NCBI GenBank assembly: GCA_019637395.1
Contig: JAHBVR010000002.1
Location: 69,495 to 133,494 of the forward strand
Reading direction: 5' to 3'
Source: Vulcanimicrobiota bacterium
GTDB taxonomy: Bacteria > Vulcanimicrobiota > Xenobia > Xenobiales > JADMJV01
Length of the DNA: 64,000 nucleotides
The notes under the pieces were generated by a model that saw only the letters and a list, made by a program, of their open reading frames with translations, was not told the origin of the DNA and searched no databases. The translations under genes were made by a program, and so were the position numbers. Shown here piece by piece: positions 1 to 40,588 of this stretch. The stretch's first letter is position 1, and the number at the start of each line of letters is the position of its first letter.

Positions 1-716
1 TAGCCGTGGGCCAGCCAGCGCCGGATAAGAGGCTGCAGACGCTGTTCCTGGGCGCGGTCGTGAAGTTGCTCAGGATTCAGTCCTAATTCCTGAAGTTCCT
101 GAGCCGGTAAATAACAGCGGCCCTCACGCAGGTCGCCGCTGATATCGCGGAGCACGTTGGTGAGTTGCAGAGCGTTGCCCAATCGGGTCCCGAGTTCTTC
201 CAGTTGAGGGGAGGCCTGAGCCAGCCGCGGTTCGTGCAGGCGCATGACGGCTGTCCAGAAGGCCCCCACGCAGCCGGCCGCCGCCCACAGGTGGCGGCGC
301 AGTTCCTGAGCATCCAGCACGGCGCCGGGAAAGCGCTCGAGGTCGACCAGCATTCCCTGGGACAGGGTGGTCACGATGTCGCGAATCAAACGCTGATCGG
401 CTGCCGGCAGAACATTCAACTCTTCCAGGGCGACGGGAAGGTGATGAAGCAGGGCTGCCTCTCCACCCTGGGAGGGATCCACGGCGGCCACGCGAGCGCG
501 CCACGGGTCCGGGCTGGCGCCGTTCAGGCATTCCAGAAATATGCGCAAAGTAGCCTCGCGCTCGCCGGCGTCCAGCCATTGGCCGTCGCTGATGCTATCG
601 GCGCAACGCGCCAGCAGATAGGCCAGCGACATGGTCTGGCGAGCGCCCGGCGGTAAGACGCGCAAACTTAGATAGAAGGCTCGGGAGGTGGCCTTGAGGA
701 GTTGCTGGGAGTTCAT
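1..716 (-). CDS. Squalene/phytoene synthase family protein (HpnC/HpnD-like head-to-head prenyl synthase), N-terminal part; C-terminus beyond window edge
   Basis: Reverse-strand translation from ATG (rc of 714-716) gives MNSQQLLKATSRAFYLSLRVLPPGARQTMSLAYLLARCADSISDG..., the conserved FYLS..R.LP / AYLLAR.AD.I.D N-terminal motifs of squalene/phytoene synthases. Not in the ORF track because no stop lies inside the window. Confidence 0.6.
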   Translation of the reverse strand, partial: MNSQQLLKATSRAFYLSLRVLPPGARQTMSLAYLLARCADSISDGQWLDAGEREATLRIFLECLNGASPDPWRARVAAVDPSQGGEAALLHHLPVALEELNVLPAADQRLIRDIVTTLSQGMLVDLERFPGAVLDAQELRRHLWAAAGCVGAFWTAVMRLHEPRLAQASPQLEELGTRLGNALQLTNVLRDISGDLREGRCYLPAQELQELGLNPEQLHDRAQEQRLQPLIRRWLAHG

Positions 717-2242
717 TTGAGCAGGGGTTGGACTTTTTGCCATTCCCCTTGTTTGAACTGCTCGCATAGTTGCAGGGCGGTGCGTCCCTGGTTGTCCAAG
801 AGTTCCTTGTGGGCACCGGCCTTGAGCAGTCTTTCCACAATGGCCGCTCGACCGGCCGCGGCCGCCCGGTGCAGGGGCGTTTGACCGTTGCCATCGGGCG
901 CTTCCAGCGGGGCTCCGGCTTTCAAAAGAGCATCCACCAGGTCGGGCGCACCGTTCTGAGCGCACCAGTGCAGGCTGGTATTCCCCTGTGAATCCTTGAG
1001 CTGAGGATCCGCATTTTTGGCCAGCAGCGCCGTGAGCACGGGCGACGACGAGTATTTGCCGGCCTCCACCAGGGGAAAACTGCCGTTGCTCAGGCTCTGA
1101 TTGGGATTGGCGCCTTTGTTGAGGAGAGCCACGGCGATTTTCTCCCATTCGCCGTCACGTCCCCGCAGACACACATCCAGCGGTGTGGGCGAACCGCCGT
1201 CGGGCAGAGCTCCGGCGCCCAAAAGTTTCTCGGCATTGGCCGCCCGGCCACTGGCCGCGGCCATAGCCAGGGGGGTGGCGCCGCTTTGATCCTGAGCTTC
1301 GATGGCGGCCCCGGCCGCCAGCAATTGCGTGACCACCTCCAGGGAACTGGTGCGGGCTGCCCAATGCAGGGCCGTCCGCCCCAGGCTGTCCGTTGAGTGG
1401 ACGTCCGCTCCTTTGGAGAGGAGCAGGGCCACGGTTTCCTGGGCGTTCTTTTCCTTGGCGCCGTTGCGGCAGGCCGCCTGCAGGGGATAACCGCGACCGC
1501 GTGCGGCCAGATTCACATCGGCTCCGTGACGGACGAGCGAGGCGGCGACTTTGTTCCACTCGCCGTGTTGACCTTGCAAACACAGGTAGAGAGCGGACTT
1601 ACCCGAGCCATCCGGCAGATCGACCGGCTGGTTTCCCAGCAAAAGCCGATCCACGGCGGCGGCTTTGCCGGCCATGGCGGCCATGTGCAGAGGGGTCCGG
1701 CCATAGGCGTCGGTGGCTTCCAGGGGAGCTTTGGCCGCCAACAGCCGGTTGATGATCTCGAGGTTGCCGCTGTGGGCGGCCCAGTGGAGCGGAGTGCGGC
1801 CGCCGCCATCGCGCAGCAGCGGGTCGGCGCCATGATCGAGCAGGGAGCTGGCGATCTCCAGGCTGCCGTTCTCGGCGGCCGCATGCAGCGGGCGCGTGCC
1901 GCGGGCCGTGCCCAGGTTCACGTCGGCTCCGCGCTCGATGAGCAGGTTGACCAGGTCGGGGCGCTTCATGTAGGCGGCTTTGTAGAGGGCTCCGTAGCCG
2001 CGCTTGTCTTGCGCTTTGGACAGAGTTGGATATTGGTCGAGCAACTGGCGGACGACCTGAGGGCGATGATCCCCGATGGCGCGGAAGAGTTGCTCCAGGT
2101 CCTGGGCAGGAGCGGCCCAGGAAAGCGCCAAAACCACCACGGCGGCGGCGCTCAGGCTGGAAGGCTTATGGCGAAACACGCACGCCAGTTTCGCCTCCAG
2201 GGGAGGCGGTCCTGCGGAGAGGAAATTCGTGGCTTCATCCAA
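713..2242 (-). CDS. Ankyrin-repeat protein (about 12 ANK repeats), probably Sec-exported. An in-frame GTG at 2179 gives MFRHKPSSLSAAAVVVLALSWAAPAQD, which looks like a signal peptide.
   Basis: Repeated G.TPLH.AA..G......LL..GA..N motifs throughout the 509-aa ORF. The TGA stop overlaps the downstream ATG (ATGA at 713-716). Confidence 0.8.
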   Translation of the reverse strand: MDEATNFLSAGPPPLEAKLACVFRHKPSSLSAAAVVVLALSWAAPAQDLEQLFRAIGDHRPQVVRQLLDQYPTLSKAQDKRGYGALYKAAYMKRPDLVNLLIERGADVNLGTARGTRPLHAAAENGSLEIASSLLDHGADPLLRDGGGRTPLHWAAHSGNLEIINRLLAAKAPLEATDAYGRTPLHMAAMAGKAAAVDRLLLGNQPVDLPDGSGKSALYLCLQGQHGEWNKVAASLVRHGADVNLAARGRGYPLQAACRNGAKEKNAQETVALLLSKGADVHSTDSLGRTALHWAARTSSLEVVTQLLAAGAAIEAQDQSGATPLAMAAASGRAANAEKLLGAGALPDGGSPTPLDVCLRGRDGEWEKIAVALLNKGANPNQSLSNGSFPLVEAGKYSSSPVLTALLAKNADPQLKDSQGNTSLHWCAQNGAPDLVDALLKAGAPLEAPDGNGQTPLHRAAAAGRAAIVERLLKAGAHKELLDNQGRTALQLCEQFKQGEWQKVQPLLK

Positions 2243-3177: not shown

Positions 3178-3765
3178 GTGGCTAAACCTCGGAAAGCCAT
3201 CGAAGCTCGGTTTCGACGCGGCAGCAATTTTCTCATCCTGATCGGCCTGCTTTCAGCGCTCTGCAATAGTCTGCTCTATTTCGGTTTCACCTGGAAGCCC
3301 GTGACTATCTTCTGTCTGGCCATTCCAGTGGTATTGGATACGGTGGTGCGCGTAGTCGATCCCCGTCTGTGGGGCCAGGAGCTACATTATTACTGCTATA
3401 TTTTTGGCCTGATTCTCTCCGGTCTCTTCGTCTTGTTGGGCATGGCCTCCAAGTTCACTTCGCACACGGGCACTTTTTTCAAGCTCGGTTCTTTCATGCA
3501 CGGCTTGAAACGGTTGGGCAGCTGGGCCGGCGGAGCGCAATTGATGGGGTCTCGCCTCTTTTATTTCGTCGGTATCGTGCTCTATATTCTCGATGGTGTG
3601 CTGGCGCTGGTGATGGAAAATTTCCTGCGCGCCAATTTCGACCAGTTGCGTATCATGGTTTTGATGAACCTGGGCTTTCACTGTTTCGTGCTGGTGTTTT
3701 TGCTACACGGCTTCGTGGCCGGATTGGAATCTGAGGCGGCCGCCAGTCCGCCCGCCAATGCTTGA
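3178..3765 (+). CDS. Hypothetical polytopic membrane protein
   Basis: AGGAGG at 3164-3169 lies 8 nt before the in-frame GTG at 3178. At least five hydrophobic helices; no recognisable motif. Confidence 0.5.
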   Translation: MAKPRKAIEARFRRGSNFLILIGLLSALCNSLLYFGFTWKPVTIFCLAIPVVLDTVVRVVDPRLWGQELHYYCYIFGLILSGLFVLLGMASKFTSHTGTFFKLGSFMHGLKRLGSWAGGAQLMGSRLFYFVGIVLYILDGVLALVMENFLRANFDQLRIMVLMNLGFHCFVLVFLLHGFVAGLESEAAASPPANA

Positions 3766-5560
3766 TTCCGATACGCTCCCGGTAGACCACGCCGGAAACA
3801 GCGAGAAGGGGGGCAAGTCGAAGGGCCTGCCTGTCTGGTTGGTCGGGATGGTGGCTCCACCGGTCGTGGTCACCGCCGGGGCCTATTTTCAATCCCACGG
3901 GGACAGCCATAGAACGCTGATCGGCCTGGCCGCGGGCGTTGGGCTCTCGATTGCCTGGGTCGGCTGGCTGGCTCTGCGAGATGCGCGCCGCGTCAGCACG
4001 GCTCGTCGGGTGCAGGATCAGATCGAAGACGCCTGGACGGCTCATGCCAAGGGAGAGTCCCAGCGGGCCGAGGAGCTGCTCAAAGACTGCGTCAAGCTGG
4101 CCGGCGCGCGGTTGGGTCGCTATGACCTGGTGACGCTGGCCTGTCTGCACACGCTGGGAAATCTTTACCGACTGCGCGAGGACCATGCCGGGGCCAATTC
4201 TTGCTACGAGCAGGCCCTGCCCATTTATCAGAAGACTCTGCCCCGCCTGCACCCGGCACGCGCTTCTTTTCATACCCATCGAGCCCTGACCTATATCACC
4301 ATGGACAATCTGGACAAGGCTCTGGAGGAAGCTCGGGAATCGGTGGCCCTGTATCGCGAAATGGGCGGCCAGGACTTTGGACTGGCCGAAGCCTGCTCGC
4401 TGGTTGGGAGACTGGCCAACCAGCGCGACGACAATGAACTGGCGCTCAAGTCCTACTCAGAAGCGCTGGAGCTGGTGCGTAAACGACTTCCCATTCAGGA
4501 TCCGCGAGTGCTCACCGCTATGGGCAATCTGTGCCGCATTTACGTCAAGCTGCGCATGTTCCAGGAATCGGAGAAATACCTGGTGGAGCTGGTGCATGAA
4601 CATCGCGCCCAGCCTGACTTGCAGCCGGAGAATTTTCTGGATGCGTTGCTGGATCTGGCCTGGACGCGCCTGGAACAAGGACGCAGCGAGGAATGCGAGC
4701 CGCTCTTGGTAGAGGCCCTGGAGATCTTGCAGAACCGGGTGGGTCCGCGCGAGCGCCCTCTGCAGAAAGTCCTGGACGCTTACCGGCGTATCACCAAAGA
4801 TTCGGTGGCGGCGGCGGCCACCACCCACGGGCTGGTTAATTTGATGCTGGTGTTCTGCGGCGAGCGCGAGAAGCTGCGCCAGACGCTGGAGAAGTTTCCC
4901 CTGTGGATGAATGCGCGCGACGCCACCGGCTGGGGACCCTTGCACTGGGCGGCTTTTGTGGGCCGAGACGATATCGTGCGCTGGCTGCTGCAAAAAGGAG
5001 CCGAGATCAGCCGCCCCGAGGACCGGGTCAGTCCGCTGCATGTGGCCGCCGCCTGGGGCAAGCGCGAGTCCTTGCTCGAGTTGCTCGATGCCGGAGGCGA
5101 CTTCAACGCCCGTGATCCGCGCGGCTGGACGCCGGTTTTCTGGTGTTCTTTCTCGGGCCGCACCAAGATACTGGAGACCATCATCAAGCGCGGAGCCGAC
5201 GTCAATCTGCGCGACGATCACGGCCGCACACCCCTGCACATTGCCGCCGAGCAAGGTCATTTGAGCACGGTGGCGGCACTGGTGGGCAGCGGGGCCCGTC
5301 TGAGCGCCAAGGAGTCCGAGTGCGGCCGCAGCCCGCTGCATCTGGCCGCTCGGCGCGGCAATCTGGCTGTCTGTGAGTGCCTGGTCTACAACCAGGGAGA
5401 CCTGGGAGCTCGCGATGAGAGCGGCAAGAATCCTGTCGATCTGGCCCGCGAGGGCCAGCATCGCCTGCTCCATCGAGTGCTGCGCCGCCTGACCCGGGCC
5501 GGCCTGGGCCGCTCTCAGCTGGGAGCAGGTCCGCGCCGCGTTTCTTTGGATGCGCCTTAG
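3758..5560 (+). CDS. Membrane-anchored TPR plus ankyrin-repeat protein
   Basis: Two N-terminal TM helices, central TPR-like helical repeats (LGNLYRLREDHAGANSCYEQALPIYQK and similar), and four or five C-terminal ANK repeats (GWTPVFW..., GRTPLHIAAEQGH..., GRSPLHLAARRGN...). Confidence 0.75.
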   Translation: MLDSDTLPVDHAGNSEKGGKSKGLPVWLVGMVAPPVVVTAGAYFQSHGDSHRTLIGLAAGVGLSIAWVGWLALRDARRVSTARRVQDQIEDAWTAHAKGESQRAEELLKDCVKLAGARLGRYDLVTLACLHTLGNLYRLREDHAGANSCYEQALPIYQKTLPRLHPARASFHTHRALTYITMDNLDKALEEARESVALYREMGGQDFGLAEACSLVGRLANQRDDNELALKSYSEALELVRKRLPIQDPRVLTAMGNLCRIYVKLRMFQESEKYLVELVHEHRAQPDLQPENFLDALLDLAWTRLEQGRSEECEPLLVEALEILQNRVGPRERPLQKVLDAYRRITKDSVAAAATTHGLVNLMLVFCGEREKLRQTLEKFPLWMNARDATGWGPLHWAAFVGRDDIVRWLLQKGAEISRPEDRVSPLHVAAAWGKRESLLELLDAGGDFNARDPRGWTPVFWCSFSGRTKILETIIKRGADVNLRDDHGRTPLHIAAEQGHLSTVAALVGSGARLSAKESECGRSPLHLAARRGNLAVCECLVYNQGDLGARDESGKNPVDLAREGQHRLLHRVLRRLTRAGLGRSQLGAGPRRVSLDAP

Positions 5561-6165: not shown

Positions 6166-8661
6166 TTGCAGGTCATCCTCCAGGCACCGTTGACGGGTTG
6201 GGCTTTGCCCTTGAGCGAGGTTCCTGATCCAGTTTTTTCTCAAGGCTTGGCCGGGCCCGGTTACGCCATCGACCCCACCGTGTCGGTGCTCAAGGCGCCG
6301 TGCGCTGGAGAGGTGGTGCAACTGCACCGCTGTCTGCATGCACTGACGGTACGGCGCGGCGATGGCCTGGAAGTGCTCATGCACGTCGGCATCGACACCG
6401 TCAAGCTGAATGGCCAGGGTTTCAAGCCGCGCGTCAAAGTCGGTGATAGGGTGGAAGCCGGCGCGCCCCTGCTGGAGTTCGATAGCGACCTGATCGCCAC
6501 CCGCTGCCGTAGTCTCATCACCGTGGTGGTGATTCCCGAGAATCCGGCCGTCACGGGCGTGGACGCCAGCCAGGGCAAGGTCCTCCAGGGGAGCGATTGG
6601 CTGAAGGTCGAGGTCAAGCAGCCGGACCTGGCGGCTCCTCTTTACAACGCCGCCGAGGATACGGGGAAAATGCCGGCCGAGAAGATTGGACGCTGGCTGG
6701 AGTTGCCTAATCCCAGCGGCATGCACGCCCGCCCGGCCGCCCGGCTGCTGATCCTGGTCAAAGACTTGCCGGGCAATATCTACTTGGAGAAGCGCTCCGG
6801 CCGCGCCTCGGCCCGCAGTCTGGTAGGTATTCTGGGCTTGGGCCTGGGGCCCAAAGAGGAAGTGCGCCTGGTTCACACGCATCTGAGCGAAGAGCAGTTA
6901 TCCAGGCTGGAAGCGGAGATTCTCGGCGGCCTGGGCGATGATCTGGCGGCCGTTCCGGTGGTCAGCGCCGCTCCGGCGCTGACCGAGGCCTTGCCCGGCC
7001 AGTTGCGCGGCGTGGTGGCTTCTCGAGGGCTGGGAATCGGCACCGTCTATCTTTGGAAGCGGGCGACCTTTCACTTGCCCGAGGAAGCTCAGGGCGGCGC
7101 CGCCGAACTGGAAGAGTTCGAGCAGGCCCTGGCGGAGGCGGCCCGGCAAATTTCTGACCTGGAGCGTAAGGCGCCGGTCTCCGAGCGGAGCATTTTTGCG
7201 GCTCACGCGGAGATCTTGCACGATCCGCAGTTGTTGGACGAAACGCGCAAGGCCATCGGCGCCGGCCAACCGGCCGCGCGCGCCTGGCATAACGCCTACG
7301 ACAAGCAGGCCGAGTTGCTGGCGGCGCTTTCCAACCCGCTGCTGGCGGCGCGGGCTAACGATCTGCGTGACGTGGGCGAGCGGGTACTCACCTGTTTGCT
7401 GGGCGAGAGTTCGGCTCAGCGTATCTTTCCCGAGGATTGCATCGTCGTTTGCCGCGACTTGAATCCGAGCGAGACGGTGCAATTGGACCGCCGGCGGGTA
7501 AAGGGTTTGTGTCTTTCTCAAGGAGGGCCGACCAGTCACGTGGCCATTTTGGCGCGCTCGCTGGGGATTCCCTCGTTGTGCGCGCTGGGACCGGCCTGCC
7601 TGGAGCTAAAGGAAGGCGTTCCCGTCGTGCTCGACGCGGAGAACGGAGTCTTACTCTGTGAACCTTCGGAGGCCGAGCTGGACAGTGCTGGGAGGCGTCT
7701 CGAGGCTTTACAGAAACAACAAGAGGCGGAGCGGGCGCTGGCTCATCAGGAAGCGCGCACCGGCGACGGCGCTCACGTGGAAGTGGCCGTCAACATCGGC
7801 AACGGCGAGGATCTGCGCCAGGGGTTGGAACAAGGCGCGGAGGGCGTCGGGCTTTTCCGCACTGAGTTTTACTTCCACGGGTTGGACCAGGAGCCCGGCC
7901 TGGAGCAGCAGGTGCAGTTCTATGGAGAACTGGCCGCTCAACTGGGAACGGAGAAACGGCTGGTGGCCCGCCTGCTCGACGTGGGCGGAGACAAACCGCT
8001 GCCCTATGTGCCCATGGCTCACGAGGAAAATCCCTTCCTGGGCGTGCGCGGCATCCGTCTCTACAAAAAGCGCCCGGAGCTCTTTCGTAACCAGATCCAG
8101 GCACTACTTCAGATTTCGGATCAATGTCGCCTGGCCGTGATGGTGCCCATGATTTCCACACTGGCCGAATGGCGCTCGATCCGGGCCGAGATCGAGCAGC
8201 AGTTGCGGGGCCGCCGGCTGGAGCTGGGGGTGATGATCGAGGTGCCCTCGGCCGCGCTGCTGGCCGATCAACTGGCCCCCGAAGTGGATTTCTTCTCGAT
8301 CGGTACCAATGACCTGACGCAATATACGCTGGCCATCGATCGCGCCCATCCCGACCTGGCCGGTCAGGTGGATGCGCTGCACCCGTCCATTCTGCGCTTG
8401 ATGCACGGAGTGGGGGAGGCGGCCCGTAAGCACGGCAAGTGGGTGGGCGTGTGCGGTGGGGCCGCTCAGGACCTGGAGGCAGTGCCCTTGCTGCTGGGCA
8501 TGAACATTCGCGAGCTGAGCGTCAGCCCGCCGGCTGTGCCTTCGGTGAAAGCCGAAGTGCGCCGCTGGTCGGTGGCCGATTGTGAAACTCTGGTGGGCGC
8601 GGCGCTGGCCCTGGCGGATGCCGAAGCAGTGCGCAAATTGGTGCGGGAGCGGCGCAAATGA
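6166..8661 (+). CDS. PTS multiphosphoryl transfer protein: EIIA(Glc-family)-HPr-Enzyme I fusion
   Basis: N-terminal EIIA-Glc motif (VLMHVGIDTVKLNGQGFKPRVKVGDRV), HPr active-site motif (GMHARPAARL), then an EI PEP-utilising domain (PTSHVAILARSLGIPS and a C-terminal PEP-binding TIM barrel). Architecture resembles Pseudomonas NagF/FruB-type proteins. Confidence 0.85.
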   Translation: MQVILQAPLTGWALPLSEVPDPVFSQGLAGPGYAIDPTVSVLKAPCAGEVVQLHRCLHALTVRRGDGLEVLMHVGIDTVKLNGQGFKPRVKVGDRVEAGAPLLEFDSDLIATRCRSLITVVVIPENPAVTGVDASQGKVLQGSDWLKVEVKQPDLAAPLYNAAEDTGKMPAEKIGRWLELPNPSGMHARPAARLLILVKDLPGNIYLEKRSGRASARSLVGILGLGLGPKEEVRLVHTHLSEEQLSRLEAEILGGLGDDLAAVPVVSAAPALTEALPGQLRGVVASRGLGIGTVYLWKRATFHLPEEAQGGAAELEEFEQALAEAARQISDLERKAPVSERSIFAAHAEILHDPQLLDETRKAIGAGQPAARAWHNAYDKQAELLAALSNPLLAARANDLRDVGERVLTCLLGESSAQRIFPEDCIVVCRDLNPSETVQLDRRRVKGLCLSQGGPTSHVAILARSLGIPSLCALGPACLELKEGVPVVLDAENGVLLCEPSEAELDSAGRRLEALQKQQEAERALAHQEARTGDGAHVEVAVNIGNGEDLRQGLEQGAEGVGLFRTEFYFHGLDQEPGLEQQVQFYGELAAQLGTEKRLVARLLDVGGDKPLPYVPMAHEENPFLGVRGIRLYKKRPELFRNQIQALLQISDQCRLAVMVPMISTLAEWRSIRAEIEQQLRGRRLELGVMIEVPSAALLADQLAPEVDFFSIGTNDLTQYTLAIDRAHPDLAGQVDALHPSILRLMHGVGEAARKHGKWVGVCGGAAQDLEAVPLLLGMNIRELSVSPPAVPSVKAEVRRWSVADCETLVGAALALADAEAVRKLVRERRK

Positions 8662-10400
8662 AGAAAATGTTCGCGGTCTTACAGCAAATCGGGCGCTCCC
8701 TGATGCTGCCGGTGTCGGTGCTGCCGGTGGCGGGCATTCTGCTGGGTGTGGGCAGCGCCAAGTTTAGCTGGATGAATTCGTTGCTGGCCACCGTGATGGA
8801 GAAATCAGGGGGCGCTATTTTCTCGAATTTGCCGTTGATTTTCGCCATCGGCGTGGCCCTGGGCTTTGCCAACTTCGACGGAGTGGCGGCGGTGGCGGCC
8901 ACGGTGGGGTTCTTCGTGCTGATTTCCACCATGGGCGTGATGGCCGAATTCCGCCATCTACCCGAGGTCATGATGGCCAACGTGGATGGCATCAAGACGC
9001 TGGAGACCGGTGTTTTTGGTGGTATTCTGATCGGCTTGCTGGCCGGCAATCTTTTCAAGCGCTATTATCGGATTGAATTGCCGGCTTACCTTGGCTTCTT
9101 TGCCGGCAAGCGTTTCGTGCCCATCATCACCGGCGTTTGCTCGCTGATTCTGGGTATCGTGATGAGCTTTGCCTGGCCGCCCGTGCAGGGGCTCATCAAT
9201 GAGTTTTCGGATTTTGTGGCCAATCGCAACCCGGCTCTCTCAGTGGCTATTTACGGAGTCGTGGAGCGCGGATTGATTCCGTTTGGTCTCCACCACATTT
9301 GGAACAACCCGTTCTTCTTCACTATTGGAAGCTTTGTCAAAGATGGCCAGACTTATCACGGCGACATCACCCGCTTTATGCAGGGCGATCAGACGGCCGG
9401 TATTCTAGGCGGCGCCTACCTCTTTAAAATGTGGGGACTACCGGCGGCGGCCATCGCCATGTGGCACAGCGCCAGGCCGGAGCGGCGCAAAGAAGTGGGC
9501 GGCATCATGATCTCGGCCGCCTTTACCTCGTTTTTGACCGGCATTACCGAGCCTATCGAGTTTTCGTTTCTCTTCGTGGCGCCCTTGCTTTACGGAATTC
9601 ATGCACTGCTGGCCGGCAGCGCCTTCTTCGTGATGTATGAAATGGGCGGCCGGCTGGGCACGACTTTTTCCCATGGCTTGATCGACTACGTGGTGCTTTA
9701 CGCCAAGTGCGTCAACCCTTATCTAGTCTTCGTGTTGGGGCCGCTCTACGCGGTCATCTATTACCTGGTGTTTCGCGCCGCCATCCGGGCTTTCAACCTG
9801 AAAACGCCGGGCCGTGAGGATGAAGTGGCGGCGGCCGCCGCTACCGGCGAAGCCGGGGGGCTGGCCGCCGCGGTGCTGGAAGCCCTGGGCGGGCCCGGTA
9901 ATCTGGCCGCGCTGGATGCCTGCATTACGCGCCTGCGCGTCACCGTCAAATCCATGCCGGCGGTCAAGGTTGACGTGCTCAAGCAATTGGGGGCCACCGG
10001 AGTGATGGTGGTGGGCGACAGCCTGCAGGCCATCTACGGCACGCGCTCGGAGAATATCAAAACCGACATCGAGGCCATCATGGCCGGCCGGGGTCAACTG
10101 GTGATGGCCAAGCCCGCCGAGCCGGCGGCCGAAGCGGCTGTGAGCAATGACGCTCCGCCGTTGCCGGGCGAGCAGGCGGACAAGTTGCGCCAGGCCCTGG
10201 GCGGTCAGGACAACGTCCTGGATAGCTCGCAAGTGGCCGTTACCCGCCTGAGAGTCCGCCTGCGCAAGTCCGACCTGCTCAAGAAGACTCTGTTGCAGGA
10301 GCTGGGGGCCCGCGACGTGCAGGATCTGGGCGGCGATGTTTTTCACGTGCTGGTGGGGCCGGAAAGCGCTCGTTGGAGCAAAACACTGGAGGTCAAATGA
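8658..10400 (+). CDS. PTS glucose/N-acetylglucosamine-family EIICB permease with an extra C-terminal EIIB-like domain
   Basis: EIIC motifs (GITEPIEFSFLFVAPLLYGIHALLAG) and an EIIB domain with the catalytic Cys (LDACITRLRV). A second EIIB-like repeat lacks the Cys (QVAVTRLRVRL). ATGA overlap with the upstream EI gene. Confidence 0.85.
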   Translation: MKKMFAVLQQIGRSLMLPVSVLPVAGILLGVGSAKFSWMNSLLATVMEKSGGAIFSNLPLIFAIGVALGFANFDGVAAVAATVGFFVLISTMGVMAEFRHLPEVMMANVDGIKTLETGVFGGILIGLLAGNLFKRYYRIELPAYLGFFAGKRFVPIITGVCSLILGIVMSFAWPPVQGLINEFSDFVANRNPALSVAIYGVVERGLIPFGLHHIWNNPFFFTIGSFVKDGQTYHGDITRFMQGDQTAGILGGAYLFKMWGLPAAAIAMWHSARPERRKEVGGIMISAAFTSFLTGITEPIEFSFLFVAPLLYGIHALLAGSAFFVMYEMGGRLGTTFSHGLIDYVVLYAKCVNPYLVFVLGPLYAVIYYLVFRAAIRAFNLKTPGREDEVAAAAATGEAGGLAAAVLEALGGPGNLAALDACITRLRVTVKSMPAVKVDVLKQLGATGVMVVGDSLQAIYGTRSENIKTDIEAIMAGRGQLVMAKPAEPAAEAAVSNDAPPLPGEQADKLRQALGGQDNVLDSSQVAVTRLRVRLRKSDLLKKTLLQELGARDVQDLGGDVFHVLVGPESARWSKTLEVK

Positions 10401-33352: not shown

Positions 33353-36300
33353 ATGATTTTATGGGAGACCTACTTCGAATCGGCTCAGCAAGCGCTGGCT
33401 GAGGGCGACGACGCCAAGGCGGCCGAGCTTTTTGCTTCCGCTTTCGAGGAGGTCGAGTCCGAAAGTGTGCGCGATGATCGCTGGTTGCGTACGTTGTTGG
33501 GCTGGTCCAAAAGTCTGACCCGCCAGGGCAATTACGACCAGGCCACGGAAGTGCTCCAGGTTGACCCGGCGGAGCTGGCCGCCTGTCCAGCGGACTTACA
33601 ATTGGATTTGCAGGCCACCCTGGCCCAACTACAGCAGGCCAAGGGGGACAGCGCCGCCGAGCTGAACAGTTGGGCCAATTGGTACGGGGCTCTGAACGGA
33701 GCCAGTGAAGCCCGCTTGCCTCACCTGCGCCGGGCCGTGCAGTTGGCTCAAGAATTGCAGGCGGACTGGATGAGCGGGGCGCGGGAGCTGCTCTACAGTT
33801 GGTCGGTGGAGTTGTTGGGACCCGATCACCCGGAGACCTTGGCCGCGGCTCAGCACCAGCTCGATAGTTACCTGGCCGAAAAGGATTGGGCTCGCGCTGA
33901 GCCGCTGCTGCGTGCTCAACTGGCGCTGAACGAGAAAGATCGGTCCGCCTGGCTCAAGACGCAAGGTTTATTAGCTCTGGCCCTGCGCTCTCAGGGCAAA
34001 GCCGAAGCGGCCTGGCTCGCTTATCGAGAAATTTTGCGCGCTCAGCCGCTGGAACACGAAGAGCATTTGGAGGTGCTTCGTTGGGCCTATGAAGAGGCTC
34101 AGGGCGAGCAGGCTCAGGAAGTCGCGCTGGACTATCTGATTCGACTCACCCAGCCGCTGCCGGGCCATCTCGACCTCTACGACTATGTTATGGTGCTGGC
34201 CGAACCGGCGGATCAACTGCGCTTGCAGCAGGCTCGACTGGGCTGGGCCGAGGCCCTTCAGACCAGCCTGGAGATCCAGTTGGACTGGACCCACGAATTG
34301 GCGCTGGCTCTCGAGGCGCAGGGGCAGCCCGATCAGGCCAATTTTTTCTGGGATCGAATTTTGCTGGAGGGCCTTCCCAAGAAGGCGTTGGCCGACGCTC
34401 ACCTGCGCGCCGCGCGCAAGGCCGCCGCTCAGGGGCAGCCGGCCGGAGACCACTACCGGGCAGGCCTGATGGGGCGTCTGGAGCAGTCCCAGTGGGAAGA
34501 GTGCTGGCTGGAGGACGCCCTGCATTGGGCCCGGCTCGAGTTTGAGCAGAACAATCAGGTCACCGCCCTGGCGATTCTTACGCCGCTCCTCGGGCAGCTC
34601 GAAAAACGCTCCTTGGAAGGCACGGCTCCCTACTGTGAGGCTCTCTTTATGCGGGCTCGACTGGCCTACGCGCAAGAGCAGCCCACGGGCCAGGCGGACC
34701 TGGAGCAAGCTTTCGAACTCTGGCAGGCGGTCGAACAGCCGGCGGACCTGGGAGTCAAGATTTCCACCTTCGCTGTCGAACAGAGCATCGCGGCTCGTCA
34801 GCAGACGGACTACCAGCGCTGGGCTGCGCGTCTGGAAAAGCTGGGTGTGGAACCTCCGCCCTTCGAACGCGGCTTCGATGAGGAGGCGATGCAGGCTCTG
34901 CATCACTCGGGAGAGTGGGTCCGGCTGGAACAAGAACTGCGCGAAGTTCTGCCCAAGCTGGGAGCGGAAAGCCCGGAGGAGCATTTTGTCGCCTACCTGT
35001 GGCTGGCCGAGAGCTTGGAGCAGCAGGGACGCTGGGAGGAGGCCTTGGAATTCCGCCAGCAATCTCAGCCCACTTTGGTGGAGCGGCTGGGTGCTGCCCA
35101 CGCGCTGGTTTTACGCGGTCAAATGCAGTTGGGTCAGTGCCTCAATGCCTTGAGCCGCTTCGCTGAAGGCGAACGGGTCCTGGCCCAGTCGGTGCGCGCC
35201 CATGAGAAGGCCCTGGGGGCTGACAGCCTGGCCGTGGGCCGGGTATTGCTCGCTTTGGCCGAGAGTTTCCGGCTGCAAGGCAAGGATAACCTGATGGAGG
35301 CGGTTTCCGGCCGGGCTGTCGGCTTGCTGGAAAAACACTTGCCGGTGGGACACCCGGACCGTTTGCAGGCCAAGCGGGACCTGGTGCAGTGGATGATGGA
35401 TCAGGGCCGCTTTGGCGAAGCCCGCCAACAACTCCAGTTTATGGAGCAAGAAGAAGTTCAGGCTTTTGGCGCGGATCACCCCGAATTAGCGGTGACTCTC
35501 TCGCAATGGGCCAGCCTGGAAACGGCCGAGGGCGACTACGCGGCAGCCGAGGTCCACTACCGGCGCTCGTTGGACCTGTTCGAACGCGGTCTCGGGGATG
35601 CCCACCCGAACGTGGCCGCCACTCTCAACAACCTGGGACAGAACCTTTACCGACAGGCTCACTATGCTAAAGCGGCCAGCGTGCTGGAGCGGGCTTTGCA
35701 GATTTTTGACGCCCACGATGCCGGGCGCGTCTCGACCATGGTCAACCTGGGACTGGTCTGGCAGGCTCAACAAGAACATGCTAAAGCCCAACAATGGTTG
35801 GAAGAAGCCTTGCGGCTGAGCCAGGAGTGGTTGGGCGAAGACGACCTGGAGGCCGCCTTCTGCTGCTTTACGCTGGCGGAAGTGCTGGCTCATCAGGGAC
35901 AAATGGCGGAAGCCCGCCAGTTTGCGCAGAGGGCTCTGGACATTCGCGAAAGACGCCTGGGAGCGTTGCATCCGGAAACCTCCACCAGCCAGGCTCAGGT
36001 GAGTAATCTGCTGATGCGTGACGGCCGGGAGGCCGACGCCATCCCCCTGGTGGAAGGCTCCCTGAAAATTCAGGCTCAGGCCCTCGGGGAAGACCATCCC
36101 GAATTGATCCCTACCTATTCAACCTTGGGCCGACTCTACATGGCCGATCAGCAGTGGGATAAGGCGGAGGAGACCCTGCTCAAGGCCATTGGTCTGATCC
36201 ATCGATCGACCGCCCAGGTCAGCGCCGAACTGGCTCAGAGAGTGGCCGAGTTGGGCGAACTTCGGGCTTCTCAAGGAGATTTGGAGCAGGCCATCGGGTT

Positions 36301-39300
36301 CTCGGCCAAAGCGGTGGAGATTCTGGTGGAGGCGTTGGGAACTCAGCACGAGGCCACCGATCCGGTCATGCTCAGACTGGCCAAGCTCTACCTGCAGGCC
36401 GCCCGCTATAAAGAAGCCGAGGCTTGCTTCAAGCGGGTGCTGGACCAGCGCACCCAGCGCCTGGGCGGCGACGACCCTGGTGTGGCTCTGGTCTGGCTGG
36501 AACTGGCCGAACTCCAATTGGCCCAGAACCGCCAGGTGCTGGCCGAAACCTTGGGCAAAAAGGCCCTGGATCTGATTCAGCGACGCTTTGGTGAAGAGCA
36601 TGTGCAACTGCGTCCAGCTCTGGAATTCCTGGCCCGGCACGCCTCCCACCACGGCAACGAATCTCAGGTTGCGGCCTATGAGCAGCGACTGGCCGCTCTG
36701 GTGGAGCCGTCCCTCGAGGATACTCCCTCAACCACCACCTCGCCGGTCGTGGCCGTTCCCTTACCCGACACCGAAGGGCAGGCGACCGTCACGCCGGAGT
36801 CAGGCCCTTCTGAGGTCGAAGGAGAGACCGTTCCTGCAGAAGATGAGCCGTCCGTGGAGCCACCTTCCATTGAGGCGGAGGCTGTCCACCTCGAGACGCC
36901 GGCGCCTACCGAAAGGGACGCGCCCGCCGAGGCGGTTGTTGAAGTGGCCGTGCCTGACGAGGCTGCCGGCCTGGTCGAGGATGTGCCTTCGGTTTCGGAA
37001 GCCATCGAGGAATCTGGGGCAGAGCCGGCGACCGCGGTCATGGCCGAGGCTGTTACCGAAACGGTTGCTGAAGCGGCGGTGGAACCCGTGGTTGCCGAGG
37101 CACCTGAGGTGGTGCCGGTGGTGCCTGAGCCGGAGCCGGAACCGCTCAGTCCGGAGGAACAGGCGGCCAGGGCGGCGCTCGAAAAGAACTGGGTTTATGT
37201 CAGGGAGTTGTTGACGCCGCTGGTCGCCGCGCGCAGCGGAGTGGACCTGGCCGAGATATTGCGCCGTCTGTCCCTGGCCGAGCGCCACCTGGGCAATCGC
37301 ACTCAGGCCGAGCGGCTGCTCTTGCAATCGATTACCTTGTGGTCTCAGGAATACGGTGAGAACCATCCGGAACTGGCCGAAAGCATGGGAGACCTGGCCG
37401 AGGTCAGTTTCGAGATGGGTAAGTTGGAGCAGGCGGAAGGCTTGCTGCGCCGGGCCACCGAGATTCAGGTTCGCCTGCACGGCACCGACCATGCCGCGAT
37501 GATTCCCTGGCTGTTGCGCCTGGGCCGGATCTATTTGCCCCACAAGGCCAGCCAGGCCCTGCCGCCGCTGCAACGGGCCCTGGGCTTGGCCCAGAGCCGC
37601 CTCAACGCTCAGGATCCGGTGCAGGCGGAGATTCTCTGGTCTCTGGCTCTGGCCCAAGAGCAGGCGGGTGACTTTGAGGAAGCCACGGTTCTCCTGCGCC
37701 GACGCCTGAGTTTTCCGGATGGCGAAGAAGCCCTCGAAGTCCAACTGAAGCTCGCCCAAATGCTGCTGCGGGCTGGACAAATCGAGGCGGCCACGCAGAT
37801 TCTGCATAAGTTGGAAGTGCACTTGCCGGTTCCCGGTCCCGAGATTGAGGAACAGGTAAAGGCGCTGGTGGGCAACATTCTGGTCTTGGAAGACCGCCTC
37901 GAGGAAGCCGAGCCGCGTTTGCTGGAGGCCCTGCAGATGCGCAGCCAGCGTCTCAGCACGCAGCATCCGGATTTGCGCCCCATCCTGTTCAATCTGGCCA
38001 AACTCTATAGCGCCCGCGAAGCTTACCAGCAGGTGGCTATTTTCGCCCAGCAGGCCCTGGAGTTAACCCCCGAAAGCGAGACCGAGACCAGGCTGCAGCT
38101 CTATTCTCAGTTGGCGCCCGCCCTGATGCACTTGGACCGGCACTCGGAAGCGGAGGTTCTGTATCGCACCTGGGCGGATTTGATCGTGGCCCAACAGGGG
38201 GAAAATCATCCGGCCCAACTGCCGGCCCTGCAAGCCCTTTCCAAGCTGCTGCAGCGCCGCGGCGACTCGATGGCGGCCCAAGAAATGCGCGAGCAGGCCT
38301 GGCAGATCCTCAGCCAGAGCCCGCAGGTCTCGGAAGCCGAGTTTCTGTTGCCTTTGGAGGACCTGGCCCGCGGCGCCATCGAGCAGGCTGCTTGGGATAA
38401 GGCTGAAGCCTGGCTCCGCCGCGCCTACGCCATCGCGGAGAAACAGGATGGACTGGCGGCGGCGCGCCTGGCTTATGCTCTGGGCGAAGTCTTCCGCTCG
38501 ACCGGCCGCCTGGCCGAAGCCGAGACCGCCATTCGCCGCTCGCTGGAATTCCGCCAGACGGCGCTGGGGGCCGAGCATGTGGAAACGCTCCGGTCCCTGC
38601 AGTCCCTGGCCGAGGTTTACTCGGCCCAGAATCGGTTTGAAGCTGCTCAATCAATGCTCAGCCGCTGTTTGGATGCGGGTAAGCAGACGTTGGGCGATCA
38701 GCATCCCGACCTGGCGGGTTTTCATCGCGCCCTGGGCGTACTCTGGTCCCACACCGGCCGGATGGACGAAGCCGAGAAGTCCTTGTTGGAGGCGCTCGCT
38801 CTGGTCGAGAATCTCTCCCCGCCCCATCCCGAACTGGTGCCTACCTTGGAAGCGCTCGGCCAATACTATCAACGCCTCGACCAGTTGGCCCAGGCCGCTC
38901 CCTTTTACAGTCGGGCTCTGGATTCAATGGAGCAGTCGTTGGGACCAAGCCATCTGGCCGTGGCCGATTCTCTGTTACAACTGGGCGAGTTACAGCAGCG
39001 TCAGGGGAATTTCGAGGAAGCCGAGAAGCTCTATCGCCGCTGTCTGGAGATTCGCAGTCAGAAACTGGCGGCGCAAAGCCCTCGTCTGGCTCAGGTCCGC
39101 CAGGTTCTGGCCCAACTGCTGCAAAAGCAGGGGCATACGGCTGCCGCCCGCGAGTTGTTCGAGCAGGCTCTGGCCGCTCTCTGGTCGGAACAAGGCGGTG
39201 AGAGTTCGCAGGTGGCGGAATGCCTCGAAGGTCTTGGGCTGCTGGAGTTGCAGCAGTCCCTTTATGCCGAATCGGAAGCTCGCCTGCAAAAGGCTCTGAC

Positions 39301-40588
39301 CATCCGGGAGAAGGAACCGGCTGACCGCCAGGGCCCCACCATGAATACCCACCAATTGCTGGCCCGCGTCTTTCTGGAAAGCCGCCGGCCCGAGATGGCC
39401 GAGCGCTCTCTGAAGCGAGCTCTGGAGATCGCCCAGAAAGCCTTCGGAGGAGACCGTCCTGAAGTAGCGGCCTGTCTCGAGCAGTTGGGTGGATTGTATT
39501 TGAGTCAGGGACGCTATGTGGCGGCCGAAGCCCTGTTTGATCGCGCCCTGGAAATACGCGACCGGAGCCAGCAGCCGCAGCATCCCGATTCGGGCTTTTG
39601 TTTGCTGGGTCTGGCTCAGATTTATCTGGCCCAGAATCAATTGACACAGGCCTGGCAAACGGCCGAGACGGCCAAGAAAATTTACGACGCGCTGCCCCAG
39701 CAGCCTAACCTGGATGGTGCCCAGGCTCTGTATCTGATGGCCGAAACGCTGCGCCTGCAGGGGCGCTTCAAGGAGTCCGAGGCGCTTTATCAGCGCTGCC
39801 TGGAGATTCGCAACAAGTTGTTGGGCAATGACCACCCCGAAGTGCAGCGCGGTTTGCACGGTCTGGGTGTGTCGCTGATGGATCAGGGCAAAGCTCCCCA
39901 GGCCGAGCGCATTTTTACCCACGCTCTGAGACTGCTGGAGGCCAAGTTGGGCAACGATCACCCCGATCTGGCCAACAGTCTGCACAGTTTGGGACTATTG
40001 CATCGCAGCCAGGGTCGCGGCGCCACCGCTGAACTGCATCTGAAACGAGCTTTGGAACTGCGCACCAAGGGATTGGGTAACGAGCACCCGGATCTGGCGG
40101 CCAGCTTGCAGGCCATGGCTCAGTTACATTTGGATCAGCGCAACGACCAGGCGGCTGAGGCGTTATTGAAACAGGCCTTGAGCATTCGAGAGAAGGCTTT
40201 GCGCGCCGATCACCCGGCTCTGTCCGCGCTGTTGCTCTTGCTGGCCGGTCTTTACAAATCGCAGGAGCGCTTTTCCGAGGCCGAGCCCCGCTTGAAGCGC
40301 GTGCTCGATCAGCGCGAAAAGTTGCTGGGCACCCATCACCCGGATACTGCCGCCATCCTTCAGGAACTGGGCGAACTCTATCTACTGAACGGCCAGCAAC
40401 AGCAGGCGGAAACCTTGCTCAAACGGGCCCTGGATATTTATGAAAAACGCCTGGGCCAGGAACATCCTACGATTTTGCCGTGCCTGCATCTGCTCTGGAA
40501 GGCTTACGACGCCCAAAAACGCACCCAGGAAGCGGCCGGCATCCGCTCGCGCATCCAACTCCTCGAAGTTACTCGCCCTGCTGGTTAA
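33353..40588 (+). CDS. Giant tetratricopeptide-repeat protein (2411 aa; KLC/TPR_12-type repeats throughout, central acidic P/E/V/A-rich linker)
   Basis: Dozens of LG..HP..A..L..LA.LY...GR..EAE.L..RAL.I.E..LG units. No Walker A or other enzymatic motif seen. Low-complexity segment at roughly 36700-37160. Confidence 0.85.
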   Translation: MILWETYFESAQQALAEGDDAKAAELFASAFEEVESESVRDDRWLRTLLGWSKSLTRQGNYDQATEVLQVDPAELAACPADLQLDLQATLAQLQQAKGDSAAELNSWANWYGALNGASEARLPHLRRAVQLAQELQADWMSGARELLYSWSVELLGPDHPETLAAAQHQLDSYLAEKDWARAEPLLRAQLALNEKDRSAWLKTQGLLALALRSQGKAEAAWLAYREILRAQPLEHEEHLEVLRWAYEEAQGEQAQEVALDYLIRLTQPLPGHLDLYDYVMVLAEPADQLRLQQARLGWAEALQTSLEIQLDWTHELALALEAQGQPDQANFFWDRILLEGLPKKALADAHLRAARKAAAQGQPAGDHYRAGLMGRLEQSQWEECWLEDALHWARLEFEQNNQVTALAILTPLLGQLEKRSLEGTAPYCEALFMRARLAYAQEQPTGQADLEQAFELWQAVEQPADLGVKISTFAVEQSIAARQQTDYQRWAARLEKLGVEPPPFERGFDEEAMQALHHSGEWVRLEQELREVLPKLGAESPEEHFVAYLWLAESLEQQGRWEEALEFRQQSQPTLVERLGAAHALVLRGQMQLGQCLNALSRFAEGERVLAQSVRAHEKALGADSLAVGRVLLALAESFRLQGKDNLMEAVSGRAVGLLEKHLPVGHPDRLQAKRDLVQWMMDQGRFGEARQQLQFMEQEEVQAFGADHPELAVTLSQWASLETAEGDYAAAEVHYRRSLDLFERGLGDAHPNVAATLNNLGQNLYRQAHYAKAASVLERALQIFDAHDAGRVSTMVNLGLVWQAQQEHAKAQQWLEEALRLSQEWLGEDDLEAAFCCFTLAEVLAHQGQMAEARQFAQRALDIRERRLGALHPETSTSQAQVSNLLMRDGREADAIPLVEGSLKIQAQALGEDHPELIPTYSTLGRLYMADQQWDKAEETLLKAIGLIHRSTAQVSAELAQRVAELGELRASQGDLEQAIGFSAKAVEILVEALGTQHEATDPVMLRLAKLYLQAARYKEAEACFKRVLDQRTQRLGGDDPGVALVWLELAELQLAQNRQVLAETLGKKALDLIQRRFGEEHVQLRPALEFLARHASHHGNESQVAAYEQRLAALVEPSLEDTPSTTTSPVVAVPLPDTEGQATVTPESGPSEVEGETVPAEDEPSVEPPSIEAEAVHLETPAPTERDAPAEAVVEVAVPDEAAGLVEDVPSVSEAIEESGAEPATAVMAEAVTETVAEAAVEPVVAEAPEVVPVVPEPEPEPLSPEEQAARAALEKNWVYVRELLTPLVAARSGVDLAEILRRLSLAERHLGNRTQAERLLLQSITLWSQEYGENHPELAESMGDLAEVSFEMGKLEQAEGLLRRATEIQVRLHGTDHAAMIPWLLRLGRIYLPHKASQALPPLQRALGLAQSRLNAQDPVQAEILWSLALAQEQAGDFEEATVLLRRRLSFPDGEEALEVQLKLAQMLLRAGQIEAATQILHKLEVHLPVPGPEIEEQVKALVGNILVLEDRLEEAEPRLLEALQMRSQRLSTQHPDLRPILFNLAKLYSAREAYQQVAIFAQQALELTPESETETRLQLYSQLAPALMHLDRHSEAEVLYRTWADLIVAQQGENHPAQLPALQALSKLLQRRGDSMAAQEMREQAWQILSQSPQVSEAEFLLPLEDLARGAIEQAAWDKAEAWLRRAYAIAEKQDGLAAARLAYALGEVFRSTGRLAEAETAIRRSLEFRQTALGAEHVETLRSLQSLAEVYSAQNRFEAAQSMLSRCLDAGKQTLGDQHPDLAGFHRALGVLWSHTGRMDEAEKSLLEALALVENLSPPHPELVPTLEALGQYYQRLDQLAQAAPFYSRALDSMEQSLGPSHLAVADSLLQLGELQQRQGNFEEAEKLYRRCLEIRSQKLAAQSPRLAQVRQVLAQLLQKQGHTAAARELFEQALAALWSEQGGESSQVAECLEGLGLLELQQSLYAESEARLQKALTIREKEPADRQGPTMNTHQLLARVFLESRRPEMAERSLKRALEIAQKAFGGDRPEVAACLEQLGGLYLSQGRYVAAEALFDRALEIRDRSQQPQHPDSGFCLLGLAQIYLAQNQLTQAWQTAETAKKIYDALPQQPNLDGAQALYLMAETLRLQGRFKESEALYQRCLEIRNKLLGNDHPEVQRGLHGLGVSLMDQGKAPQAERIFTHALRLLEAKLGNDHPDLANSLHSLGLLHRSQGRGATAELHLKRALELRTKGLGNEHPDLAASLQAMAQLHLDQRNDQAAEALLKQALSIREKALRADHPALSALLLLLAGLYKSQERFSEAEPRLKRVLDQREKLLGTHHPDTAAILQELGELYLLNGQQQQAETLLKRALDIYEKRLGQEHPTILPCLHLLWKAYDAQKRTQEAAGIRSRIQLLEVTRPAG

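Follow-up and report, generated by a model that had tools for sequence, protein, structure and literature searches.

An ankyrin-repeat gene and a gene of the squalene/phytoene synthase family, overlapping by four nucleotides, lie at the left end of the window analyzed here, a 64,000-nucleotide stretch of DNA from a Vulcanimicrobiota bacterium of the class Xenobia (positions 69,495 to 133,494 of contig JAHBVR010000002.1, assembly GCA_019637395.1). The resulting gene pair, hereafter ank-sqs, is real, conserved among relatives and undescribed, with ordinary parts and a putative functional link; no earlier description of an ankyrin-squalene synthase operon was found in the literature. The pair had been noticed in a sequence-only reading of the window, whose observation is confirmed and whose interpretation is partly supported by the analysis presented below. 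The explanation favored here, considered somewhat probable, is that the pair represents a conserved, lineage-specific unit in which an exported ankyrin protein (Ank) and a synthase of the bacterial squalene synthase type (Sqs) are co-regulated within an envelope-related cluster, rather than an Ank-Sqs complex or a hopanoid operon. The component parts of the pair, with all coordinates referring to the window, are as follows.

1 to 716, reverse strand: sqs, 5′ part comprising 238 codons of a putative Sqs-type squalene/phytoene-synthase-family gene (327 amino acids in full), with its ATG at 716..714 and running off the left end
713 to 716, reverse strand: ATGA stop/start overlap, formed by the ank TGA (715..713) and the sqs ATG (716..714)
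713 to 2179, reverse strand: ank, gene for the predicted exported ankyrin-repeat protein, 488 amino acids, GTG start at 2179, stop codon included
2105 to 2179, reverse strand: predicted Sec signal peptide, amino acids 1-25, with cleavage after APA and before Q26
1547 to 2104, reverse strand: Ank module 1, amino acids 26-211, an N-cap plus repeats ending in LCxxxxGEWxKV, corresponding to the entire 215-amino-acid short form of relatives
1133 to 1546, reverse strand: Ank module 2, amino acids 212-349, a tandem copy of the four-repeat unit, as defined by module alignment
716 to 1132, reverse strand: Ank module 3, amino acids 350-488, a tandem copy of the four-repeat unit with the C-terminal cap GEWQKVQPLLK

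Conservation of the pair among relatives

The ATGA overlap described in the sequence-only reading is present as stated, and the pair, together with an (A/G)TGA overlap of four nucleotides, occurs in all eight of the related contexts compared (the window with its corresponding locus L001, L003/4, L005/6, L007/8, L089, L090, L094 and L096). The ankyrin gene resides directly upstream of sqs at Sqs identities of 78, 70, 62, 61, 54 and 51% (L003/4, L005/6, L089, L090, L007/8 and L094, respectively), and the deepest pair, in L096, displays 44% identity in Sqs, 40% in Ank and about 30% in the protein with an SH3b domain encoded on the other side of ank, at a GC content of 70% versus about 60%. The overlap is kept despite variation in the sqs start codon (ATG or GTG) and in the length of the Ank C-terminal tail; in L089, the gene caller placed the start of sqs at a later ATG, yet the GTGA overlap is present in the sequence. 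The ATGA overlap itself is ordinary, because no type of gene junction is commoner in this genome than a four-nucleotide overlap, whereas the conservation of the pair and its overlap exceeds chance.

The divergence of the encoded proteins is orderly. Ank, Sqs, the SH3b protein and a beta-lactamase-fold (Bla-like) protein encoded further downstream diverge congruently, with L096 as the outgroup for all four, and Ank changes at about the rate of Sqs, under purifying selection. The flanks of the pair have been rearranged over the same range: the genes for a metallo-beta-lactamase (MBL)-fold protein and the Bla-like protein are inverted in L089 and replaced in L007, neither L005 nor L089 retains a gene for a fusion of tetratricopeptide repeats (TPR) with ankyrin repeats, and L089 carries an inserted M20 peptidase gene. 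Two findings had been named beforehand as refuting the sequence-only reading, namely a left-hand gene outside the prenyl synthases and the absence of the ankyrin gene from this position in all relatives. Neither applies, as the left gene encodes a PF00494 synthase and the ankyrin gene occupies the position in 8/8 relatives, down to 44% Sqs identity.

Outside this lineage, the pairing was not seen in the loci compared. In a tblastn search, no ankyrin gene was found within 8 kb of sqs in any of 80 distant Sqs-family loci from nine or more phyla, this set being the matches listed from a contig scan with a Sqs alignment, none of which exceeds 44% identity or belongs to the close lineage. The Sqs loci L091 and L095 also have no ankyrin gene, giving 0/82 other loci among the matches listed and bearing out the proposal that the arrangement is not a standard one. 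One of the 80 loci is a contig of Baltobacteraceae (Eremiobacterota), on which the upstream neighbor of sqs encodes an M3-type peptidase. The wider Sqs family is found in Acidobacteria, Verrucomicrobia, Nitrospira, Rokubacteria, NC10, Elusimicrobia and Chloroflexi, and further in Beta/Gammaproteobacteria and Poseidoniia. A Pfam scan of 103 neighbors of the distant sqs genes revealed no squalene-hopene cyclase (SHC), hpn or other enriched partner. In addition, a degenerate DNA pattern running from the C-terminus of Ank through RTGA to the N-terminus of Sqs picked up the known loci again and, in metagenome contigs, a single false positive in an O-antigen-ligase-like region, although this pattern demanded TTC for Phe and CGN for Arg and was probably too strict. 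Carriers of ank-sqs are an uncultured bacterial lineage of soil and wastewater; in NCBI, the identical Sqs protein is listed under “Candidatus Eremiobacteraeota bacterium”, and a relative under “bacterium SCN 62-11”.

The ankyrin-repeat protein and its predicted export

The open reading frame at 713..2242 (reverse strand) holds the ankyrin gene, and the 488-amino-acid version beginning at GTG 2179 is identical to the gene-caller product on public contigs. A start at TTG 2242 (509 amino acids) was rejected, because the signal peptide would then lie internally and the start of the divergent gene would be overlapped; nor do orthologues conserve the extension. The identification of an ankyrin-repeat protein holds, with Pfam matches to Ank_2 (E=1.1e-73, 244 bits against a cutoff of 27.3) and Ank (E=2.2e-63, 207 bits), and a score above the gathering threshold is accompanied by a solenoid in the structural model. 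This AlphaFold2 single-sequence model (mean predicted local distance difference test (pLDDT) score 84, predicted template-modeling score 0.70) contains 14 helix-pair repeats rather than the 12 counted earlier, with a disordered N-terminus (residues 1-21, pLDDT <50). The top Foldseek matches to the model are designed ankyrin repeat proteins (DARPins) and ankyrin-B/R, with nothing beyond generic long ankyrin solenoids.

The Ank N-terminus, MFRHKPSSLSAAAVVVLALSWAAPA followed by QD across the predicted cleavage site, displays the features expected of a Sec signal peptide, as had been suggested for a start at 2179: the n-region carries positive charge, the core behind it is hydrophobic (Kyte-Doolittle maximum 2.66 over 10 residues) and an AxA site follows. 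By the same rule of thumb, seven Ank orthologues whose N-terminal sequences are otherwise unrelated share charge in the n-region, hydrophobicity in the core and an AxA site with Q after it. Also shared among the orthologues are an N-cap, AQ.L(E/D).LF(R/Q), and a C-cap, (E/Q/D/N)W..V..(L/I)L.

Module alignment shows the long Ank of the window to be a tandem triplication of a four-repeat unit of about 138 amino acids, every copy of which ends in LC....GEW.K(V/I). Two forms of the protein exist among relatives, a short form of 215-217 amino acids with one module (L007:5357-6004, L089:5270-5920, L090:5351-6004 and L096:1698-2345) and the long, triplicated form of 482-506 amino acids. With the short form as query, only two close orthologues were recovered, followed by generic ankyrins, and no wider ankyrin family emerged.

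A probable one-step squalene synthase homologue

The synthase gene is truncated by the window edge, and the full-length protein of 327 amino acids was recovered from L001:11464-12447. Its assignment to the PF00494 superfamily is secure: the 238 in-window codons match SQS_PSY (E=1.1e-39, 137 bits against a cutoff of 26), and 18 homologues all keep both Asp-rich motifs (D40xxxD44 and D191xxxD195) as well as R37, Q184, N187, R190 and R200. The sequence-only reading was thus right to see a prenyl synthase, while its HpnC/HpnD-like designation does not stand. NCBIfam scores are 96 bits for HpnD (cutoff 278.6) and 57 for HpnC (cutoff 250.45), short of the TIGR03465/TIGR03464 cutoffs; the first motif is DSxxD rather than DDxxD; and the genes downstream are not those of an hpnC-hpnD-hpnE cluster. 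Scores are likewise low for squal_synth TIGR01559 (52 bits against 286.75) and CrtB (54 against 480).

With moderate confidence, the enzyme is instead referred to the bacterial one-step Sqs type, because its family profile aligns with squalene synthase (SQS) from end to end, its first motif is of the DSxxD/DTxxD kind and the phylum spread of the family matches. The profile of 18 homologues aligns over its length with eukaryotic squalene synthases of solved structure (90 bits and E=1e-24 for 7wgh), over positions 7-337 and including the C-terminal K-I/V-x-K/R stretch (K-V-x-R opposite K-I-T-K), a region that is absent from the shorter CrtM, PSY and HpnC enzymes; the same profile gives 35 bits with solved HpnC and 62 bits with CrtM. 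The first Asp-rich motif reads DSISD in the window, DS.SD in the ank-linked clade and DT.AD in the wider family. Santana-Molina et al. (2020) set Sqs apart from HpnC, HpnD, CrtB and CrtM by DTxxD versus DDxxD in this motif, and list Sqs beside HpnCDE in the phyla recovered here for the wider family (PMC7306690). Clade members are named farnesyl-diphosphate farnesyltransferase by JGI.

One departure from this picture concerns residues 139-144 (window 283..300, reverse strand), which exist in two co-varying states, Y.Y.VAGCVG and H(L/T)(W/Y).AAGCVG, among homologues P0001-P0120. The ank-linked clade is uniformly HLWAAAGCVG, and about 11 unrelated members of the family also have the H...AAGCVG variant together with the co-varying Ala. 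The replacement by His of the Tyr that L096 and most of the wider family have at this position is probably a tolerated variant, because it recurs together with the Ala elsewhere in the family; the proposal that it marks an inactive enzyme was rejected on the same grounds. A C-terminal membrane anchor was also considered and rejected (19-residue Kyte-Doolittle maximum 1.45, no clear transmembrane segment), and Sqs probably acts in the cytoplasm.

Genes downstream of the pair

Logan contig SRR12908358_568 (locus L001) carries the exact ankyrin protein and extends beyond the left edge of the window. At L001:12470-14385, the MBL-fold gene begins 22 nucleotides after sqs and is followed, with an overlap of four nucleotides, by the Bla-like gene, after which the coding strand switches. 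These two genes occupy the position in which hpnC/D/E and shc had been anticipated, and in the stretches annotated, 10 kb past the left edge as well as window 1..50 kb, neither hpnE nor a second synthase, hpn, shc or any other isoprenoid gene was found. The MBL-fold protein has no signal peptide, is predicted to be cytoplasmic and shows a weak Pfam match to Anti-Pycsar Apyc1-like proteins. The Bla-like protein (351 amino acids) has a class-A beta-lactamase fold, a predicted signal peptide and the motifs SxxK, SDN and KTG, and among solved structures it is closest to LRA-5 and to the PBP-A Tll2115, which is a penicillin-binding protein (PBP) of poor penicillinase activity (PMC4331424); the Bla-like protein is therefore also referred to as PBP-A-like.

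The MBL-bla pair accompanies ank-sqs in most relatives. In the one lineage that does not have it, sqs is followed, with an overlap of four nucleotides, by a gene for a 382-amino-acid BNR-like protein (L007:6984-8132) that is predicted to be Tat-exported, displaying a twin-arginine-like signal (RREFLL) and a SxDxxxTW BNR-like motif, with no Pfam match.

Comparison with known systems

Comparisons can be made with two exported ankyrin proteins encoded beside enzymes. Bd3460 of Bdellovibrio bacteriovorus (220 amino acids, with a signal peptide and six ankyrin repeats), a self-protection protein active in the periplasm, is co-transcribed with and inhibits the PBP-fold DD-endopeptidase Bd3459 (PMC4686830). 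It resembles the short Ank in being a small signal-peptide ankyrin protein (six repeats in 220 amino acids, compared with 215-217 amino acids) encoded near an exported PBP-fold enzyme. However, the gene that overlaps ank encodes a squalene-synthase homologue predicted to be cytoplasmic, with the PBP-fold gene lying one or two genes further on; the PBP-fold protein belongs with class A/PBP-A, not with S13/PBP4, and one lineage does not have it at the locus; and the Ank of the window is triplicated to about 14 repeats and displays no specific sequence similarity to Bd3460. The second system is AnkB-KatB of Pseudomonas aeruginosa, in which AnkB, encoded in the same operon, is described as needed for optimal catalase activity (Howell et al., 2000, as cited in PMC10294975). 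As summarized there, this too is a periplasmic/exported ankyrin-like protein in an operon with a single enzyme, and a precedent for ankyrin-enzyme bicistrons in free-living bacteria, but here the overlapping enzyme is a prenyl synthase rather than a catalase and no oxidative-stress genes are present in the operon.

Like the published bacterial Sqs clade (PMC7306690), the window synthase has the PF00494 fold, a DTxxD-type motif (here DSxSD), full-length alignment with SQS and a distribution in the same phyla. It differs in scoring below the TIGR01559 cutoff, in having His for the catalytic Tyr and Ser for Thr in the Asp-rich motif, and in belonging to the sole part of the family found with an upstream overlapping ankyrin gene. 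The enzymes of the three-step HpnC/HpnD/HpnE squalene pathway fall in the same head-to-head trans-isoprenyl diphosphate synthase superfamily, and HpnD is nominally the best NCBIfam model for Sqs. The window enzyme nevertheless reaches only a third of their cutoffs, has DSxxD in place of DDxxD, carries a C-terminal SQS-like extension and, in the annotated stretches, has none of the hpnE, second synthase or shc neighbors of an hpn/shc cluster.

Proposed function and alternatives

If the pair is a co-regulated unit, as favored here, mature Ank, with its signal peptide cleaved, would work outside the cytoplasm as a protein-binding scaffold, while Sqs, as a one-step squalene synthase homologue, would act on cytoplasmic farnesyl diphosphate and NADPH. 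No Shine-Dalgarno-like motif was found upstream of the sqs start, which fits termination-reinitiation without being diagnostic of it. The (A/G)TGA overlap would accordingly place both genes on one transcript with translational coupling, such that Sqs would be made whenever Ank is made and in fixed proportion. A direct Ank-Sqs complex, the protein-interaction role suggested by the sequence-only reading, is unlikely, because export would put Ank across the membrane from Sqs, and the link between the genes is most likely co-regulation, because the products would reside in different compartments. The cluster would comprise the divergently encoded SH3b membrane protein, ank-sqs, usually the MBL-fold protein, and the exported PBP-A-like protein, the last of which would, by analogy with Bd3460/Bd3459 and AnkB/KatB, be the most plausible physical partner of Ank, ahead of Sqs. 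A stronger version, in which these SH3b, Ank, Sqs, (MBL-fold) and PBP-A-like proteins form a dedicated envelope module of this Eremiobacterota-affiliated lineage, linking the synthesis of triterpenoid (squalene-derived) membrane lipids with cell-wall enzymology in the periplasm, with a purposeful stop/start overlap, is rather improbable. In that case, the overlap could serve to fix the Ank:Sqs stoichiometry, or co-translational targeting of Ank could bring the shared mRNA, and hence Sqs synthesis, to the membrane.

Several observations weigh against the co-regulated unit. Among 34 co-directional neighboring gene pairs around the window, 20 overlap, nine of them by exactly four nucleotides, so that the commonest junction in the genome is not specific evidence of coupling; Shine-Dalgarno-like motifs precede 26 of 56 genes (46%), so that their absence before sqs is not specific either; and the single transcript and its translational coupling are proposed from sequence. 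The signal peptide of Ank was called by rule of thumb (n, h and c regions and the AxA site). Sqs misses all NCBIfam equivalog cutoffs, with HpnD as its nominal top model, and the catalytic Tyr (equivalent to human SQS Y171) is His142 throughout the ank-linked clade, P0001-P0031. Finally, the entire block from the phosphotransferase system (PTS) genes to the SH3 gene is also syntenic across the relatives, and all positive cases may stem from a single ancestral event, in which case part of the conservation could be inertia.

These last points are the core of the view that there is no functional link, ank having been inserted once before sqs in an ancestor and the adjacency then kept by synteny inertia in a compact genome with default four-nucleotide overlaps. 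The routine nature of the overlaps, the synteny of the wider neighborhood, the presence of Sqs homologues elsewhere without conserved neighbors and the different compartments of the two products all agree with it. It is nevertheless doubtful, since the pair is still present where identity has fallen to 44% for Sqs, 40% for Ank and about 30% for the SH3 protein, and across a GC shift from 60% to 70%, while its flanks are inverted, lost, inserted or replaced, the overlap persists through changes of start codon and Ank tail length, and purifying selection acts on Ank, which changes about as fast as Sqs. A different proposal, possible without being probable, is that the true partner of Ank is the exported PBP-A-like protein, bound in the periplasm by Ank as an inhibitor, self-protection factor or stabilizer, with sqs merely co-transcribed; this is compatible with co-regulation of the pair and refines which protein Ank touches. 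Both proteins have predicted signal peptides, no more than 3 kb separates the Bla-like gene from ank in seven of the eight contexts, the gene comes right after sqs in the deepest branch (L096), and the kinship of its product with LRA-5 and Tll2115 (PMC4331424), the Bd3460-like size of the short Ank (PMC4686830), the peptidoglycan-type SH3b domain of the divergent neighbor and the ankyrin-catalase operon precedents (PMC10294975) point the same way. On the other hand, Ank has no specific similarity to Bd3460, its PDB matches being generic ankyrins and DARPins; the Bla-like gene is on the opposite strand in L089 and absent from the L007/L008 locus, where the Tat-exported BNR-like protein stands instead and ank-sqs is retained; and, of the junctions, it is ank-sqs rather than ank-bla that is tightest and best conserved.

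The identity of the reaction product and the possibility of an effector role bear on the two proteins separately. It is unlikely that the product of the PF00494 enzyme is a different head-to-head prenyl compound (presqualene diphosphate, hydroxysqualene, dehydrosqualene or a phytoene-like molecule), such that the cluster would not be about squalene. The NCBIfam equivalog cutoffs, all missed by this protein and also throughout the wider Sqs family (TIGR01559 scores of 65-97 bits in the latter), could be read in this way, as could the nominal HpnD match, the His substitution and DSxSD in place of DTxxD, but the alignment with solved squalene synthases is end to end and includes the C-terminal region, both Asp-rich motifs and the five further residues are invariant, the His variant with its co-varying Ala looks like a tolerated natural variant, and the phylum distribution fits the published Sqs clade. 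It is hardly credible that Ank is a secreted effector for a eukaryotic host (in the style of Legionella/Coxiella Ank proteins) or an anti-phage component. Ankyrin proteins are enriched in host-associated bacteria (PMC4686830), and the NCBIfam type IV secretion system (T4SS) Ank models and PADLOC ankyrin models do match; these matches are, however, repeat-driven and far under cutoff (the best, AnkY, at 150 bits against 600), which gives no ground for a Dot/Icm effector, and in the PADLOC scan the Sqs, MBL-fold, Bla-like, SH3 and 195-amino-acid proteins of the locus had no matches, so that no defense system is indicated. In addition, the predicted N-terminal Sec signal is unlike a C-terminal T4SS signal, no T4SS genes were found in the annotated stretches and no secretion-system genes are adjacent, and the protein diverges at an ordinary, Sqs-like rate. 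Contrary to the host-associated flavor of the sequence-only reading, Ank is, to judge from its sequence and that of its orthologues, vertically inherited, Sec-exported and not effector-like.

If the pairing is functional, it would represent the first bacterial squalene synthase hard-wired to an exported protein-interaction scaffold and, next to AnkB-KatB and Bd3460-Bd3459, a third kind of operon on the “exported ankyrin plus enzyme” pattern, and would point to coordination of triterpenoid lipid supply with the periplasmic/cell-wall machinery in a poorly known uncultured lineage. If it is not, what is left is a well-conserved lineage-specific synteny, the gain being a corrected annotation (Sqs type rather than HpnC/HpnD, with no hopanoid operon). 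The natural 6-repeat and 14-repeat versions of one Ank scaffold would be useful for the study of the effect of repeat expansion on binding.

Genes upstream and elsewhere in the window

On the other side of ank, the window contains a short intergenic region and the divergent SH3b gene.

2180 to 2228, no strand: divergent intergenic region between ank and the SH3b gene, 49 bp, from gene calls on L001
2229 to 3116, forward strand: SH3b-domain protein, 295 amino acids, predicted to be membrane-anchored, divergent from ank; Pfam matches to SH3_3 and SH3_YKFC are weak and below gathering score

No sigma-70-like site was found in the 49-bp region, and a promoter/terminator scan was uninformative, with no promoter-like sites and terminator-like sites at background. 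The SH3b protein is proline-rich and has a weak DUF4864 match. Its orthologues are 29-76% identical, with a divergence congruent with that of Sqs. Rightward of ank, the gene order is the SH3b protein, a 195-amino-acid membrane protein, the TPR-ankyrin fusion, a TPR protein and the PTS genes. The SH3b gene and the gene for the 195-amino-acid protein are kept beside ank-sqs in every relative with sequence there, the SH3b gene even in L096.

The 195-amino-acid protein (3178..3765, forward strand), encoded next after the SH3b gene, is a polytopic membrane protein without a family match. The TPR-ankyrin fusion (3758..5560, forward strand, 600 amino acids) has N-terminal hydrophobic segments, a TPR block and four to five C-terminal ankyrin repeats; it is the sole other ankyrin gene in the window and is syntenic in L003, L007 and L090. 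The PTS pair (6166..10400, forward strand), an EIIA-HPr-EI fusion gene (831 amino acids) that overlaps an EIIC-EIIB gene (580 amino acids) by four nucleotides, is where the syntenic block ends on the right, a border conserved in all relatives. Farther along, at 33353..40588 (forward strand), an open reading frame of 2411 amino acids consists almost entirely of TPR_12/TPR_NPHP3-type repeats (>50 Pfam matches), resembling a giant repeat scaffold, and an identical product is present on another public contig.

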